DNA from: Desulfatiglandales bacterium
GTDB lineage: Bacteria > Desulfobacterota > DSM-4660 > Desulfatiglandales > Desulfatiglandaceae
Reading direction: 5' to 3'
Length of the DNA: 64,000 bases
Assembly: GCA_963662465.1 (NCBI GenBank)
Contig: OY759599.1
Coordinates: forward strand, 1,088,001 to 1,152,000
Shown here: positions 10,119 to 64,000 of the stretch, one piece after another
Numbering within the stretch: position 1 is the stretch's first letter
Layout of the letters: each line of letters opens with the position of its first letter
Program-made: the position numbers and the translations under genes
The notes under the pieces: generated by a model
What the model was told of the DNA's origin: nothing
Database searches by the model: none
What the model saw: the letters and a program-made list of their open reading frames with translations, nothing else

Positions 10119-11389
10119 GAATTTTTTTCTTGAGTATGTTGTGGGGTCTCTGTTTCATGCTGTTCACGCCTGTTTGTCAGTGTGAAACGCCCATTCGAAT
10201 CAGTGATTTTCTGTCCGGCGCTTCAACGGATGACTTTCTGCCGGCAGAGAAAGAGGTCCTTTCCTTTTTGGAGAAAAATCAGGACGCGCCTTTTTTGAAT
10301 GAGTTGGAATTCCGGTTGAACGTTGATGAGTTTGATTACGATCGGCAGGAGTTTGCCATCCGTTTCAAAACCCGGAGCTTTGGTGAAATGCGGGATCTCA
10401 AAAAGCTTGCCCTTGCAGGCATGGCATCCCAGGAAGCACAATACGGACTGCTGCTCCAGCGGGCCTTGAAAAGGAGATATGATATTGTTCTTGAATACCT
10501 TTACTGCCGTGAAATGATCACCGCTTATGGGGAACTGACGAAAGTGTGTGAAGATCGGCTTCATGTGCTTAAAAGGAGTTCAGAGGTTCCAGGCGTGGAT
10601 CCGTTGAAACTCAGTTATGCGCTTGTGGATGCTGAAAACGATCTACTGGATGTGGAGATGGAAACCGAAAGGTTAAAAGACCGTTCCAGGCTGATTTCCG
10701 ATGAAATCCGGAGAGATATGGGGACGAACAGCCCCATTGCCTTTGAAAATGAAAAAAGAGTGGCGATAAATGACATTACAAATGAGATTCGGCAAATTGC
10801 CGAAGTTCCGGCGGTGACAGCCGAAATTCAAAGCGCCCAAAAAAAAGCTGATCTGGCGGCGGCCCGTTATGCGCTGGAAAAATCGCGGAATGGCGCGTGG
10901 TTCAGCTTTATTGAAACCGCCTACGATCTGGAACAACGGTATGATTTTGAAAAAGCCTTTTCCATTGGATTCGGCATTACAATACCCATCGGCACAACGA
11001 GCAGGCCGGAGATGCGGGAAAAAAAGCTAAAGGAATTGAATGCCAAAAGGGTCTGCGAAATGCTCAAACAACGGAACCGGGACGAGACGCTCCGTCTTTC
11101 AAATGAGTTGCTGCACTTGATTCGCCGGTATGAACGCTTTTACGAAAAAAAGCGATCCAGCGGTGGAAAATGCCACTACGATGTCTGGCAACGCACGGAG
11201 GGAACTGATCCCATGATTTTGCTGAAAATCAGGGAATCCATGTTGAAAAAACAGATCGGGAAAACAAAGCGCCTCTTTGAAATCTTCAGGTGCTACACCA
11301 ACCTGCTGGATGTTTCCGGAAAACTGCTCGAAAAACCGTTTAGAAATTATCTGACCCATGCCCGGGAGCATTTCGAATTCCATGTCTGA
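10115..11389 (+). CDS. Exported helical protein, probable divergent TolC-like outer membrane factor
   Basis: Signal peptide, long helices with short beta segments (FSIGFGITIPIG); coupled to the HlyD-like gene. Confidence 0.5.
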   Translation: MRIFFLSMLWGLCFMLFTPVCQCETPIRISDFLSGASTDDFLPAEKEVLSFLEKNQDAPFLNELEFRLNVDEFDYDRQEFAIRFKTRSFGEMRDLKKLALAGMASQEAQYGLLLQRALKRRYDIVLEYLYCREMITAYGELTKVCEDRLHVLKRSSEVPGVDPLKLSYALVDAENDLLDVEMETERLKDRSRLISDEIRRDMGTNSPIAFENEKRVAINDITNEIRQIAEVPAVTAEIQSAQKKADLAAARYALEKSRNGAWFSFIETAYDLEQRYDFEKAFSIGFGITIPIGTTSRPEMREKKLKELNAKRVCEMLKQRNRDETLRLSNELLHLIRRYERFYEKKRSSGGKCHYDVWQRTEGTDPMILLKIRESMLKKQIGKTKRLFEIFRCYTNLLDVSGKLLEKPFRNYLTHAREHFEFHV

Positions 11390-54356: not shown

Positions 54357-54619
54357 TTCTCACTCCTTAATGGCCGAAATCTATTAACCGCTATTCTGTT
54401 AATGCAATGATGCGATAGAAAACCTAGCCTCCTCAGCATACCTTGTAAAGGGATGCAGTTGCAAGGGCAAGTTCACGACTTTTCTCTTGACATGATAGGA
54501 GGCAGCATTTCCTTACTTCAATAAAATCAACAACTTAACATGACTAAACAGGGCGCAGGGAGCAAGATAATATACGGATAATGCTCCCTAAATGCAACCA
54601 AATTACCGCGTTTTACCAG

Positions 54620-55043: not shown

Positions 55044-55197
55044 CACCGAAAACACAATTTAATATCTCAACTGGCGGGTGCCGCTCCCCTGGAATGGAGC
55101 ATCGAAAGATGAGGACCCCTTAATGGATGCCACGGAGATCAATTTCATTTTTGATTTTTGTGGCATTTTTTTTGTGCCACGGGAAGGGGAAGTTAAA

Positions 55198-59761: not shown

Positions 59762-60160
59762 ATGAAACGAATTAAGGCAAAAATAAGGCAAAAACCGACC
59801 GATGGAGACGCCATGGCGCAGACCATCAAGACCGACGCCATTGACGGCAGGACCAAGCAGGCACGGCACATCAAGCGGATAAAGGACGGCTTGACCGATG
59901 CTCCCATCAACACCGCAAAGGCGCTGCTCAAGGCGCTCGTGGCGCAGAACACGGTGATCTCGCAGGAGATCTATAACGCTGCGCTCAACTCCGGCAGCCT
60001 CATCGACGCAAAGGGCAAGCTCAATCCACTCATCGAAAAGTCCCTGGTCAAATACCAGAACGCCAGCAAATCGGCTTTGATCGAGCTATTGAAACTTGAG
60101 GGCGGCAAGGCAGAGGACAATCCGGAGGACATTTTCAGCGATGTTTTTGACGGTTGCTAG
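59762..60160 (+). CDS. Helical protein, candidate terminase small subunit
   Basis: GGAGG SD; IDGRT; KLNPLI; acidic tail; upstream of terL. Confidence 0.5.
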   Translation: MKRIKAKIRQKPTDGDAMAQTIKTDAIDGRTKQARHIKRIKDGLTDAPINTAKALLKALVAQNTVISQEIYNAALNSGSLIDAKGKLNPLIEKSLVKYQNASKSALIELLKLEGGKAEDNPEDIFSDVFDGC

Positions 60161-60286: not shown

Positions 60287-60376
60287 GGGCCCAGGACCGG
60301 GTGCGGATATGCCGACGGACACCATGGCGCAGGGCCCAGGACCGGGTGCGGATATGACGACGGACACCATGGCGCA
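60287..60376 (+). repeat. 45-bp tandem duplication
   Basis: GGGCCCAGGACCGGGTGCGGATATG(C/A)CGACGGACACCATGGCGCA x2. Confidence 0.95.
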
Positions 60377-60661
60377 GGGCATGGGCAAGGCCATTGCAAG
60401 GGCGCTATCACTACCTCCGATTGTGGGGCGGATGTGGGTGTCACAAGGCATAATCTGTACCTTAAATCAATAGCTTGTGGGAGGCCCCGACCTCGCGGTG
60501 TTGAAAACGATTTTTAATCGGGTATGAGCCCACACCCAAAATGTCAAAAATTAAAAATTATAGCATGACGCAAAACGCCAAAACCCAAAATGTAAAATTC
60601 AAAAATTATAACACACTGGCCATGGCCAGACACATAAACCCAAAAGAGAGAGGTAAAGACA

Positions 60662-60967: not shown

Positions 60968-60997
60968 CACCAAATTATTAACACAAAAAATCACACA

Positions 60998-61043
60998 GAA
61001 CCTCTTTGAAGGTCCGTGATTGAACAGGACACCTAGGAGGTTC
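60998..61043 (+). promoter_or_regulatory. Hairpin sequestering the terminase RBS
   Basis: GAACCTC (60998-61004) pairs with GAGGTTC (61037-61043), covering GGAGG 61036-61040. Confidence 0.6.
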
Positions 61044-61045
61044 CC

Positions 61046-62860
61046 ATGGGCACCGAAACAGCGACAAAACCCAGCAACAAAGACAGAGTTAAGAAATGGC
61101 GAGCAAACACACCCGAGGCGTTTCTCCAGTGGGTTGATGACATCAAGCCTCGCATATTGATAAACTCAAGATACGAGATATTTCAACCGACCGAAAACCA
61201 GCTCAAACTTATACACCAAATCCTGAAGCCAGCCGAAAATCCTATTAATCAATCTGTGGATGAGCCCGTGCAAGCCATAGGCGAGCGGTCCCATAACGCC
61301 AGGAAAGCCAGACCTTCCCGCAAAACAAAACCGGTTGACGAGGAGCAGCAACAGGCAAGGCGCTCATCTTTTCAACACAGCCTATCATTAATAATAGAGC
61401 CCAGACGTCATGGCAAATCCACTCTATTTTGCTTGATGTGTTTGTGGTTGTTCACCAGCCGGAGAAACATCACCATCCAGCTCCTGGGAAACACGGAATC
61501 CCACTGCCGCAGGGTCCAGTTTTCAACCGTCAAGAAAATCATTGCTAACACGCCGACGCTGCGGAAGCTCATACCGGAAAAGCAGATGTTTGTGTATGAA
61601 ATCTTTTTCCCTGCGCTCGGCAATGTTTTGCAGATGAGCCCAGGAAATAATCCCTCCACTTCCTTTGGCGAAAAAATAGATGTCCTCTGGGTGTCCGATT
61701 TACACGCATCCACCGACCTGGCACCGTTCAACGCTCTTCAAGGCTCGCTCCTTGACTCCAAGGATTCTGTTTGCTGGCTCGACTCCAATGTGGACAGCAA
61801 GGGTGGCACCGTACACATGATCCAGGAGGAGGCGGTAAATGATCCGTCAATTTTCGCGCACCATACCTTTTACCGGGACTTGAATCATTACTGCGCAGAG
61901 GCACCGCCATGGATTTCCCGCACAAAGGCCAGACGCCTGGCGAAAACTTCTCTCCCTGCTGATTTCCGTAGAGATATTTTGGGCAAGCGCTCTGACGCTT
62001 CAAACGCTCTCTTCCCATCGGACGTTATTGAAATGTGCAAGAGCCCATATAAATGTCCGGTTGAGGATATTCAAACTTTGACGCAGGGACGAGCGTATTT
62101 TGTGGGTGGCGGTTTGGATAGATCGAAATCATTGCTGGGCAGTACATTTGGTGCCGATGCCACTATTTGGACCTGCGTTTTGAAAGTAGCAAATCCCAAA
62201 AATGAGGAACCCGAGATTTTCCTTTTGAACCAGGTGAACGTCATACCGAACACCGCAGCAAATATCAAAAAAATCATACTCAAGGACCACCAGCGTTATG
62301 GTTTGAAAATGGCTTGCCTTGAGGATTACGAAACCATGGATATTATCCCATGGCTGGAAGCCCAGAACATTCCCGTTGAAAAAATGTCACCTCATTCAAC
62401 GCGGCAGAATGCGTCATTTCCGGAGCTGGCCAGAATCTCACGAGAGGGCAGGCTCCATTTTCCCGAGGACGAAAAAGGGCTCGCCGATGAAATGGCCACA
62501 TTCAGCTATGTGAAAGCTCCCAGGGGTGAGGGTTATTCATTTGGCCATTCTAGCAAAAATCAGCACGACGACAGAGTTTATTCCCTGAACTGGGCCATTT
62601 ATGCTTTACGCAGTCAAATCATGAACCTTTACACCCTCAACCGTATCACCTGCACATCAAAACGACCGAACCGGCACCTCTGTTTTTTGATGGGCGGCAG
62701 CTTGGAATTACACTGCGCCCAAAACTGCGAGGCAGCAGTTGAAGTGCGCGACATGCACCGGCAGTTCCTTCAATATCAGCTCGACAGTGATATTGACTTA
62801 TCCCAATTTTACAAAAACCACGTAAAATTGACCGGAATAAAAACATATCAGGCCATATAG
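61046..62860 (+). CDS. Terminase large subunit-like protein
   Basis: Walker A PRRHGKS; nuclease GLD...D and HDDRVYSL; followed by portal. Confidence 0.85.
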   Translation: MGTETATKPSNKDRVKKWRANTPEAFLQWVDDIKPRILINSRYEIFQPTENQLKLIHQILKPAENPINQSVDEPVQAIGERSHNARKARPSRKTKPVDEEQQQARRSSFQHSLSLIIEPRRHGKSTLFCLMCLWLFTSRRNITIQLLGNTESHCRRVQFSTVKKIIANTPTLRKLIPEKQMFVYEIFFPALGNVLQMSPGNNPSTSFGEKIDVLWVSDLHASTDLAPFNALQGSLLDSKDSVCWLDSNVDSKGGTVHMIQEEAVNDPSIFAHHTFYRDLNHYCAEAPPWISRTKARRLAKTSLPADFRRDILGKRSDASNALFPSDVIEMCKSPYKCPVEDIQTLTQGRAYFVGGGLDRSKSLLGSTFGADATIWTCVLKVANPKNEEPEIFLLNQVNVIPNTAANIKKIILKDHQRYGLKMACLEDYETMDIIPWLEAQNIPVEKMSPHSTRQNASFPELARISREGRLHFPEDEKGLADEMATFSYVKAPRGEGYSFGHSSKNQHDDRVYSLNWAIYALRSQIMNLYTLNRITCTSKRPNRHLCFLMGGSLELHCAQNCEAAVEVRDMHRQFLQYQLDSDIDLSQFYKNHVKLTGIKTYQAI

Positions 62861-62862
62861 CC

Positions 62863-63090
62863 ATGATTGACGCAATAAATAACAAAACAGACCAAAAAAA
62901 AGACTGGACAAATCGGAAAACATCAATTATGGTTGATATTCGATGTTTTAACTGCAATCGGTTGTTATGCACGGGGCACATAACCGAGGGAGAAATAGTT
63001 ATCAAGTGTGGTAAGTGCGGCAAGATGATAACTATAGGCGCACATGGCGCACAACCGGCAACGGTTAAAACGGTCCGGTTAGTGCGCTAA
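62863..63090 (+). CDS. Com-family zinc-ribbon protein
   Basis: DIRCFNCNRLL...IVIKCGKCG. Confidence 0.75.
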   Translation: MIDAINNKTDQKKDWTNRKTSIMVDIRCFNCNRLLCTGHITEGEIVIKCGKCGKMITIGAHGAQPATVKTVRLVR

Positions 63091-63120
63091 AAATCACAAA
63101 AGAAATCAGAGCCCATTCAG

Positions 63121-63158
63121 AGGCCATTTGCGGATTATACCGCAGGTGGCCTTTTTTA
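63121..63158 (+). terminator. Terminator-like hairpin before the portal gene
   Basis: AGGCCATTTGCGG-ATTATA-CCGCAGGTGGCCT then TTTTT. Confidence 0.7.
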
Positions 63159-63180
63159 GTTTGCCCCAAAGGAAAAAACA

Positions 63181-64000
63181 ATGCTTTGGAATAGTACAGC
63201 AAAAGACGTGGTGCAGAAGATGTTCAAGGAAGCTGCGGAGAAGGAAACGCGAGCCAGGAAGGATGATACCATCAAGCGCTTGTCCTATTATCACGATGAG
63301 CAAGAGGCGTATATCACCGAGCAGCTCAATCAGCACCACGCCGATCCGGACGCTTTTACGCCTGTTTTTTTCAACGTCTGCAAAAAAATCATCAATCAGC
63401 TCTCCATGGTTTACATGGCGGACGCAACACGAGAGATTGACGGCAGCGTCCAAGACAAAGCCATATTCGACATGATTGTGGATTCTTCAAATCTGAATCT
63501 CAAGATGAAAACCGCCTCCCGTTATACGCAGCTCTTAAAAACAATCATGCTGCGTCCGATCTGGCGACAGGGAAAAATGGACCTGGATATATATGATGGG
63601 AGCATACTTGACGTTGAAACCGGTGACTCTCCCGAACACCTGGAAAGGGTGATGGTTACGCACTATCCACAGAGCGGAGAATCTAAGGACATCGAATATA
63701 GTTTATGGGACATCGAAACATACCGCAGGCTGGATTATAACGGCAACACCCTCGAAAACGCACAAAACCCATATCAAGTAATCCCTTTTGTGCCGATCTG
63801 GGCAAGCTATCCGGCAACCGGCAGTTTCTGGGCGGCAGGCGGTAATGATTTAATCTCGGTGCAAAGTACCATCAACCAAAAACTCACGGATTTAATGTTA
63901 GTTTTGGAATATCAGGGTTTTGGTGTTCCTGTGGCAAAAGGGTTGCCCACGGGTGGAAATTTGCACATCGGACCGAATACCGCAGTGGAAATCGAAAATC
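63181..64000 (+). CDS. Phage portal protein (SPP1 gp6-like), runs off window
   Basis: Manual translation MLWNSTAKD...SYYHDEQ...NVCKKIINQLSMVY...NPYQVIPFV...LISVQSTIN...YQGFG; open to the window end. Confidence 0.8.
   Translation, partial: MLWNSTAKDVVQKMFKEAAEKETRARKDDTIKRLSYYHDEQEAYITEQLNQHHADPDAFTPVFFNVCKKIINQLSMVYMADATREIDGSVQDKAIFDMIVDSSNLNLKMKTASRYTQLLKTIMLRPIWRQGKMDLDIYDGSILDVETGDSPEHLERVMVTHYPQSGESKDIEYSLWDIETYRRLDYNGNTLENAQNPYQVIPFVPIWASYPATGSFWAAGGNDLISVQSTINQKLTDLMLVLEYQGFGVPVAKGLPTGGNLHIGPNTAVEIEN

Follow-up and report, generated by a model that had tools for sequence, protein, structure and literature searches.

Two leaders of a tailless, head-packaging, integrated element in the window (the whole stretch of 64,000 nucleotides that was analysed), those of the terminase large subunit gene (terL) and of the portal gene, each carry a small hairpin motif of the type bound by the Com protein of phage Mu, which overlaps a larger inhibitory structure, and a gene for a Com-family zinc ribbon lies between them. 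This feature is real and conserved. The preferred reading, for which the probability is put at about 0.78, is that Com captures the hairpin in nascent RNA, by which translation of terL would be freed and termination before the portal gene would be blocked. It is very probable that the window's own Com binds these sites, and probable that it acts by antitermination at the portal site (site 2); translational activation at the terL site (site 1) is held to be equally probable.

The element and its com gene

The element has a size of 14,402 bp (~14.4-kb), and its relatives belong mostly to Thermodesulfobacteriota. A 10-bp direct repeat forms its boundaries, and breaks in public assembly contigs fall exactly on both copies. 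The plus-strand gene order begins with an RHH protein, an xis-like HTH protein, a methyltransferase, a primase-helicase and a likely terminase small subunit (terS, a lead only), and continues with terL, com, portal, a putative scaffold, the major capsid protein, one unknown protein and the integrase. The features of the window are:

54486..54495, + strand, left attachment core CTTGACATGA; right copy at L001 16878-16887
55422-56612, + strand, methyltransferase, 6 kb upstream of com
59762..60160, + strand, candidate terminase small subunit (lead only); Atlas neighbours 0.91-0.93
60986..61021, + strand, lower stem of the predicted ON hairpin; AATCAC (part of AAAAATCACA) pairs with GTGATT
60998..61015, + strand, site 1, Com-type hairpin GA-ACCT-C-TTT-GA-AGGT-C-C; length and pairing as in the Mu target
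60998..61043, + strand, predicted OFF structure over the terL ribosome-binding site; fold -19.5 kcal/mol
61046..62860, + strand, terL, terminase large subunit, 604 aa; phrog_2, E 7.5e-13
62863..63090, + strand, com, Com-family CxxC-x17-CxxC zinc ribbon, 75 aa; PF10122
62905..62933, + strand, predicted sigma70-like promoter signature TGGACA-17-TATGGT, 9/12, inside the 5' coding part of com
63109..63125, + strand, site 2, Com-type hairpin GA-GCC-C-ATTCA-GA-GGC-C with a 3-bp stem; its 3' half is the terminator base
63119..63159, + strand, intrinsic-terminator-like hairpin and T-run before portal; z -5.58
63181..64000, + strand, portal gene, 446 aa, extending beyond the window end; PHROG match

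The PRRH.K motif and acidic residues are invariant across 54 terL homologues, and a PDB sequence search with terL gave no match. Pfam and PHROG searches with the terS candidate (59762..60160) gave no matches, and some of its Atlas neighbour clusters have Terminase_4 on 10% and 56% of their members. The stretch from portal to integrase has PHROG matches to phrog_533 (E 2.2e-6), phrog_212 (E 3.8e-69) and phrog_1 (E 1.2e-63). The putative scaffold, located between portal and capsid, takes its name from position alone and has no family match, and a search with the 129-aa open reading frame 3' of the capsid gene gave no name. No tail or lysis genes were found among 19 protein queries, a scan outside which a few small open reading frames between capsid and integrase fall.

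An earlier note on this DNA had placed a Com-type zinc ribbon gene between the two sites, and its identification is upheld by PF10122, the profile score being 27.0-27.9 bits against a cut-off of 22.9. The open reading frame also matches phrog_6417/13819, and the protein is 35% identical to Mu Com over 43 aa. Four cysteines (C28, C31, C49 and C52), predicted to bind zinc, are invariant in 18/18 aligned Com proteins; among 15 com-bearing (com+) relatives scanned with PF10122, five score above the cut-off, seven score below it and three have no PF10122 row. A PDB sequence search with Com returned generic zinc ribbons only (E 0.014 or worse), and the host genome has no second PF10122/Com match and no second strong site. 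The com ATG is located 2 nt past the terL stop without a Shine-Dalgarno match (SD energy -2.5), and the six closest lineages have the same 2-nt interval, likewise without a Shine-Dalgarno match. An alternative com start at ATG 62929 was ruled out, being inside the -10 box and not conserved. The Mu order, in which com directly precedes mom/methyltransferase, was not found; com is instead situated between terL and portal.

Leader structures and the proposed switch

The SELEX motif of Com in the accessible text of PMC6483171 is NGAGNNCC(N)2-3GAGNNCCNN, with the loop motif CC(N)2-3GAG, and Com was shown there to bind a hairpin whose loop is C(N)2-3GA. The Mu target (NC_000929) is GA-ATGC-C-TGC-GA-GCAT-C. 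Like it, site 1 is 18 nt long and built as GA-4bp-C-N3-GA-4bp-C, with three stem pairs exchanged; it has a 4-bp stem, an A.C mismatch and the loop C-N3-GA, and its exact pattern has a single occurrence in 8.16 Mb. Site 2 is one pair shorter than the Mu target with a longer loop, and it deviates from the SELEX motif in having GAGNCC halves and a 5-nt loop core. The same 3-bp site is present in a classical com-to-methyltransferase pair (L234, PF10122 66.9 bits), which ties the 3-bp form to the Com family.

The earlier note had pointed to similar motifs in the two leaders, CAGAACCTCTTTGAAGGTCC beginning at 60996 and CAGAGCCCATTCAGAGGCCA beginning at 63107, each shortly after a copy of AAAAATCACA (60986 and 63089), and all of these positions are correct. 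Its statement that the 5' arms of both inhibitory structures overlap the motifs holds as to overlap, with the difference that site 1 contributes its 5' half and site 2 its 3' half. The two copies of AAAAATCACA are the only ones in the element (35 in the genome), and AAAAATCACA was rejected as a shared element because it is not conserved in relatives: the relatives shown do not retain it before site 2, and before site 1 only its TCAC recurs (L043, L119), pairing with GTGA after the site and extending the hairpin. This TCAC/GTGA lower stem is absent from L038, L037 and L009. The stem of site 1 itself has a compensatory TTCT/AGAA variant in L119.

Folding agreed with the claim that the terL ribosome-binding site is buried in a hairpin. 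In the OFF structure, 60998-61006 pairs with the ribosome-binding site AGGAGGTTC at 61035-61043, directly 5' of the ATG at 61046, and the 3' half of site 1 pairs with 61027-61030. The fold of the terL leader alone is modest (z -1.45 to -2.36). Holding the Com hairpin at site 1 costs 6.7 kcal/mol, and with this hairpin fixed the predicted opening cost of the terL ribosome-binding site falls from 11.8 to 7.4. The terminator-like hairpin described before portal was likewise recovered, with a stem of 15 pairs (63119-63154) and a T-run; its z value is -5.58, and 0/200 shuffles were equally stable. The site 2 hairpin is weak by itself (z 0.68), and holding it against the terminator costs 10-11.6 kcal/mol; when it is held, folding leaves a shorter stem with GGCC between the stem and the U-run.

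The same geometry was found at other Com-type sites. The probability of the Com hairpin in the full-length leader fold is at most 0.025 at 31/31 sites, which makes it exclusive with the inhibitory structure, and the cost of holding it across these sites ranges from 2.4 to 21.6 kcal/mol. In truncated window transcripts the Com hairpin is dominant (P 0.75-0.99) until the last arm is made, at 63149-63153 for site 2 and at 61038-61042 for site 1. Given the energy gaps in the window (10-11.6 and 6.7 kcal/mol), the switch would be workable only by capture during transcription. Fixing the Com hairpin reduces the opening cost of the ribosome-binding site in 6/6 terL and 6/6 capsid leaders. The median opening cost for terL is 12.3 in site-bearing leaders and 8.9 in others (n=6, 53; p 0.023), with wide overlap and with leaders of com-less (com-) lineages reaching 19.2 and being equally closed in some cases; for capsid the values are 11.2 and 5.2 (n=6, 64; p 0.0002). 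The same fold test on Mu changed the opening cost from 9.5 to 9.0 and did not reproduce the known Mu switch, because the Mu hairpin lies beside the inhibitory stem and not within it. No Rfam family was found over either leader at E up to 5; two chance snoRNA matches (E 1.4-1.8) fall outside them.

These folds bear on the possibility that Com is a brake that binds the paired form or blocks the leader, limiting terminase and head synthesis. According to the accessible text of PMC6483171, Com does bind the duplex form of its motif, weakly, and did so preferentially in an earlier study cited there. Such a role is nevertheless highly unlikely: the conserved object is a hairpin with a C-N-GA loop, exclusive with the OFF structures; these are the most stable folds without any assistance, and Mu Com is an activator.

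It is also conceivable that Com is purely translational, as in Mu, with site 2 controlling the portal start and the pre-portal hairpin being a constitutive, leaky attenuator or a processing or stability element. The sole activity of Com in the accessible text of PMC6483171 and PMC3299994 is translational, in several relatives the portal start region is able to pair with the 5' half of site 2, and displacement of the terminator would cost 7-17 kcal/mol. With the Com hairpin fixed, however, the opening cost of the window's portal ribosome-binding site is nearly unchanged (7.0 to 6.7), and in 4/14 loci it is raised; this hardly responsive ribosome-binding site favours a transcriptional role at site 2. 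Moreover, the base of the terminator is formed by the site also where the genes that follow are unrelated (early xis-like genes, endolysin and protease), and constitutive termination ahead of the genes for the most abundant proteins (capsid) would be a poor fit, so that a translation-only role is considered unlikely.

In the capture mechanism preferred here, the Com zinc ribbon would bind the small GA-stem-C-loop-GA-stem-C hairpin during RNA synthesis and hold it, while an uncaptured hairpin would form first and later be displaced by the OFF structure. A hairpin held at site 1 would leave the terL ribosome-binding site free, one held at site 2 would block closure of the terminator, and terminase, portal, scaffold and capsid would be switched on together. 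The proposal that Com gates DNA packaging thus fits terL and is too narrow for the remainder, since the terminator would gate portal, the putative scaffold and the major capsid protein.

The promoter signature inside com, and the location of com at the terL stop without a ribosome site of its own, are new here, and the latter arrangement suggests positive feedback. In 11/16 com genes, those of the window's group and of L057, the 5' coding part contains a TTGAC/TGGAC hexamer followed 17 nt on by TA; seven have it at exactly -39 relative to the first Cys codon, and none of the 11 has an in-frame start between the predicted transcription start and the zinc finger. A strict promoter rule is passed by 7/15 com genes as compared with 6/655 background windows. 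The signature is missing from the remaining five com genes, three of which have promoter-like sequences 30-35 nt before the site. Host polymerase starting at the promoter inside com may constitutively produce a short com-less transcript that would be stopped at the terminator until Com is present, and com, translated by coupling to terL, may allow Com to raise its own synthesis; the chances of this self-amplifying arrangement are judged to be about even. As there is no other com in the host genome, the simplest guess is that the first Com arises from leaky translation after induction.

Distribution and covariation of the sites

Relatives of the element were collected in three scans with the 54-protein terL alignment, which contributed 34, 80 (of 81) and 70 loci; a scan of viral contigs with a single terL sequence found nothing, whereas the alignment query gave matches. 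Together with the window locus these represent 110 lineages at 93% identity, of which 101 were placed on a FastTree tree, nine short fragments being left out. Of its rows, 16 are com+, 76 are com- and 9 are unclassifiable, and the com+ rows form three separate groups by terL: ten lineages including the window, five lineages, and L057 alone. A general site pattern, with a loop core of 2-8 and 3 or 4 pairs, was searched up to 150 nt upstream of gene starts. Rows in which the start could not be located or the upstream DNA was too short were excluded; one of these is L009 at portal, where the site is present.

The pattern was found before portal in 12/14 com+ and 0/76 com- lineages, before capsid in 8/12 and 1/62, and before terL in 6/16 (ten of the 16 having no terL site) and 1/67, comparisons whose Fisher p values overstate the case because the pattern was drawn after the com+ loci had been seen, the lineages are kin and most com- loci have almost no intergenic room. 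Before the scaffold gene, the negative control, it was found in 0/11 com+ and 3/44 com- lineages. The two com+ portal leaders that were missed have a loop core of 10 (L051) and a nested hairpin (L064). Most com- genes abut their neighbour, and the site is also absent from 12 com- loci where the gap measures between ~90 nt and 3.8 kb. In a 400-kb genome sample the pattern has a background frequency of 0.055 per kb per strand. From these sequences the portal terminator switch appears to be the core of the system and the terL switch an accessory, with a third, pre-capsid site predicted in many relatives.

It might be supposed that com, together with the site and the terminator, forms a passenger cassette or relic whose match with the terL and portal leaders is incidental, given that 76/92 classifiable lineages have no com yet possess the same head module and that the com+ groups are three only. 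This is scarcely credible in view of the separate sites before terL, portal, capsid and early genes, confined to com+ elements, the retention of the site at the portal leader with 1-3.7 kb between com and portal (L135, L068 and L100), and the invariance of the four cysteines.

Covariation was examined in 18 hand-picked site-plus-terminator sequences over 11 basal terminator pairs, a selection that favours pairing. In the terminator helix 94.4% of cells are paired, as compared with 82.8% in shuffled alignments and 41-67% (maximum 66.7%) in slid controls, and two-sided changes affect 6/11 pairs (3/500 shuffles) and 17 cells (0/500 shuffles). The halves of the site are swapped in L135 and L064, and the terminator arm has changed along with them, from GGCC to GGGC; L057 has the site-1 sequence type at its portal terminator. 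The 3-bp hairpin pairs alone, in a MAFFT alignment, gave a weak signal (12/500 shuffles; two-sided pairs 159/500), so that the covariation sought for these leaders exists between site and terminator helix and is weak for the short hairpin taken separately. Among sites chosen for pairing, an anchored count found a CG/GC exchange in 4/17 three-pair sites, and several pair types occur in 14 four-pair sites. An RNA model (R1) had 16 matches at E<0.01, all training members, missed the sites of L068, L100 and L079, which shows its limited sensitivity, and had no matches in 77 com-less or unclassified loci. The reading of the leaders as Com-gated, already put forward in the earlier note, is supported by the motif, which is conserved, occurs among relatives together with com, covaries with the terminator arm and, at all 31 sites folded, excludes the inhibitory structure, and from this we infer binding, activation and antitermination.

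Alternatively, the protein could recognise double-stranded DNA at the two GAGNCC-like direct repeats and act on RNA polymerase as a Q-type factor or activator; the site is a near-direct repeat downstream of promoter-like sequences, and a database label 'Com family DNA-binding transcriptional regulator' exists. The spacing between the halves, however, varies among sites from 2 to 10 nt, changes in the halves preserve pairing, and the positional sites are all on the sense strand and always over an RNA inhibitory stem. Com binds RNA hairpins in the accessible text of PMC6483171, and recognition of double-stranded DNA is considered very improbable here.

Hairpin sites joined to terminators were also found in unrelated phages. 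A motif-first scan of viral contigs found 12 with a terminator among the 120 matches listed, of which seven belong to the window element's own family; 11 of these 12 adjoin a CxxC-CxxC open reading frame and the twelfth adjoins an atypical one. Among the matches listed without a called terminator, 13/108 have a CxxC-CxxC open reading frame within 1.5 kb, three of them clearly Com. A full scan with the site-plus-terminator pattern found 24 loci, 16 with an adjacent zinc open reading frame: six of the window element's family, nine from four other lineages, and one probably spurious. Genes downstream of the cassettes encode head protease, scaffold, portal, head protein, HNH and endolysin. The exact site-1 pattern had at least 120 matches in viral contigs, mostly chance, and among those listed one has a terminator (the early site of L037) and none has a convincing adjacent Com. 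The swapped-halves pattern had at least 122 matches; three of those listed have a terminator, one of these adjoining a zinc open reading frame, and two further com loci overlooked by the terminator rule were found. A wider proposal is put forward tentatively, at somewhat less than even odds: Com zinc ribbons may be a widespread, portable master switch of phage late genes that uses one RNA hairpin in two modes, is gained and lost together with its sites and is also wired to replication genes, and that would here be self-amplifying through the com-internal promoter, the Com-gated terminator and terL-com coupling.

Comparison with known systems

A full-text literature search, with subscription papers outside its scope, found Com only as a translational activator of mom or methyltransferases (accessible text of PMC6483171 and PMC3299994) and found no description of antitermination by Com. 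The words 'terminator' and 'termination' do not occur in the accessible text of PMC6483171, nor, by term search, does 'Com' in the accessible main text of PMC5737381. If the preferred reading is true, Com also serves many phages and satellites as an antiterminator and as a switch for late genes, a role in which it offers a small alternative to Q, N or late sigma factors; for synthetic biology, a protein able to control both outputs through an 18-nt site would be a useful part. The element is a compact test case: it has a single 75-aa protein, a candidate translational switch and, 2 kb away, a candidate transcriptional one, and some of its natural relatives have the system while others lack it.

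The element has in common with the capsid-forming PICI satellites (cf-PICIs; accessible text of PMC10085698) a size of ~14 kb and genes for integrase, regulator, primase, terL, portal and capsid; cf-PICIs are also without tail and holin genes, neither of which was found in the element. The cf-PICI gene set (integrase, regulator, primase, capsid, terS, terL and portal, without tail or holin) is present in the element, with terS as a lead only. The head-tail connector, adaptor, HNH and prohead protease of cf-PICIs (accessible text of PMC10085698) are missing among the element's scanned open reading frames, where a putative scaffold is present instead; because these genes are missing, the element is not assigned to the cf-PICIs.

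Com and mom of Mu (PF10122; accessible text of PMC6483171 and PMC3299994) share with the element a CCCC zinc ribbon, and a Com site by a stem that hides start signals, as in com-mom, is predicted at terL. The pairs of Com homologue and methyltransferase in Mu-like prophages (FluMu and B3; accessible text of PMC3299994) likewise combine a Com homologue with a predicted site; the element differs in that its methyltransferase is 6 kb upstream of com and is not preceded by the general Com-site pattern. Unlike in Mu, where the hairpin lies beside the inhibitory stem and the target is a DNA-modification gene, the sites of the element overlap the inhibitory stem, its candidate targets are terminase, portal and capsid genes, and there are several sites, located outside com, one of which is built into a terminator.

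The terminator arrangement resembles a second class of switch. In the RAT systems of BglG, LicT and SacY, a protein holds a weak hairpin in the RNA, and this hairpin shares sequence with the 5' arm of an intrinsic terminator; in the element, by predicted structures and covariation, the hairpin overlaps and excludes the terminator stem. The element differs in having an unrelated 75-aa zinc ribbon without sensor domains, an unrelated site, phage late genes as targets and a predicted dual, also translational, use; CAT/PRD domains of the BglG/LicT type had no Pfam match, and an Rfam search of the leaders (E up to 5) gave no RAT RNA. The Q and N proteins of lambda modify polymerase processively. 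The pR'-tR'/Q and N/nut systems have in common with the element the logic of a promoter, a terminator and a phage read-through factor before late genes, whereas here a separate site overlaps each stop signal examined, an arrangement that suggests a switch acting locally on the RNA, unlike lambda Q or N.

Terminator-like hairpin and possible regulatory or packaging sequences

The window contains a second terminator-like hairpin besides the one that precedes the portal gene, and the region between the terS-like gene and terL holds a short motif and several repeats:

55125-55168, terminator-like hairpin flanked by the RHH and xis-like genes (18 pairs and a T-run)
60287-60376 and 60530-60613, repeats in the terS-like–terL interval (a 45-nt tandem duplication and two A-rich 36-nt repeats)
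60418-60428, CGATTGTGGGG motif 5' of terL

At the position equivalent to the second hairpin, the base of the terminator includes a clean Com site, the predicted RNA hairpin, in two related loci (L037 and L009); the window sequence 5' of this hairpin has at best a degenerate Com site (RNA model E 0.13). The motif CGATTGTGGGG was found again in four related loci (L123, L137, L043 and L091), 37-92 nt 5' of terL, and may be a packaging or regulatory site on the DNA. The copies of the 45-nt tandem duplication 5' of terL are 98% alike, and the repeat region is a candidate packaging origin. The C-terminal extension of terL itself (window about 62650-62730) contains four cysteines, C536, C546, C557 and C561, that are invariant in an alignment of 54 homologues and possibly form a metal site.

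Distribution and integration of the elements

The terL family marks integrated head-only elements of roughly 14-20 kb (L003-L186), hosted by Thermodesulfobacteriota and some Pseudomonadota. In some relatives, minor-head or adaptor-like ORFs were noted by eye 3' of the capsid gene. The attachment core (window 54486-54495; 16878-16887 of L001, a stretch of the same genome) includes TTGACA, a -35-like hexamer, and lies 5' of a host gene that was labelled by eye as resembling fabH. Contigs of a single study, possibly the source of the assembly, break at both attachment cores, and read depth in that study is lower within the element (about 30 vs 40-48); together these observations give a hint that empty attachment sites are present in the same sample. 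One contig of run X3 links L001 position 11346 back to 10121 and exits at 10950, a junction (10121-11346) that is probably an amplification chimera. Two multi-copy sequences, of 2.0 kb and 2.6 kb, that are located 3' of the element in the L001-L002 region of the genome (about 1161-1170 kb) are likely insertion elements.

Com-like genes in other contexts

Separate com-like genes, each with its own site and terminator, are present in two relatives:

L079, 2035-2240, com-like gene
L051, 404-620, com-like gene

The head module of the L079 element lacks com, and a 4-bp SELEX-type site is located 5' of its HTH gene and primase. In L188, a viral contig of an unrelated phage, a zinc-ribbon gene is followed by a site, a terminator and an HNH gene. 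This gene weakly matches PF14205 (Cys_rich_KTR), whose members may be Com-like, and, as in com of the element, its 5' coding part carries a promoter signature (TTGACG-17-TATACT).
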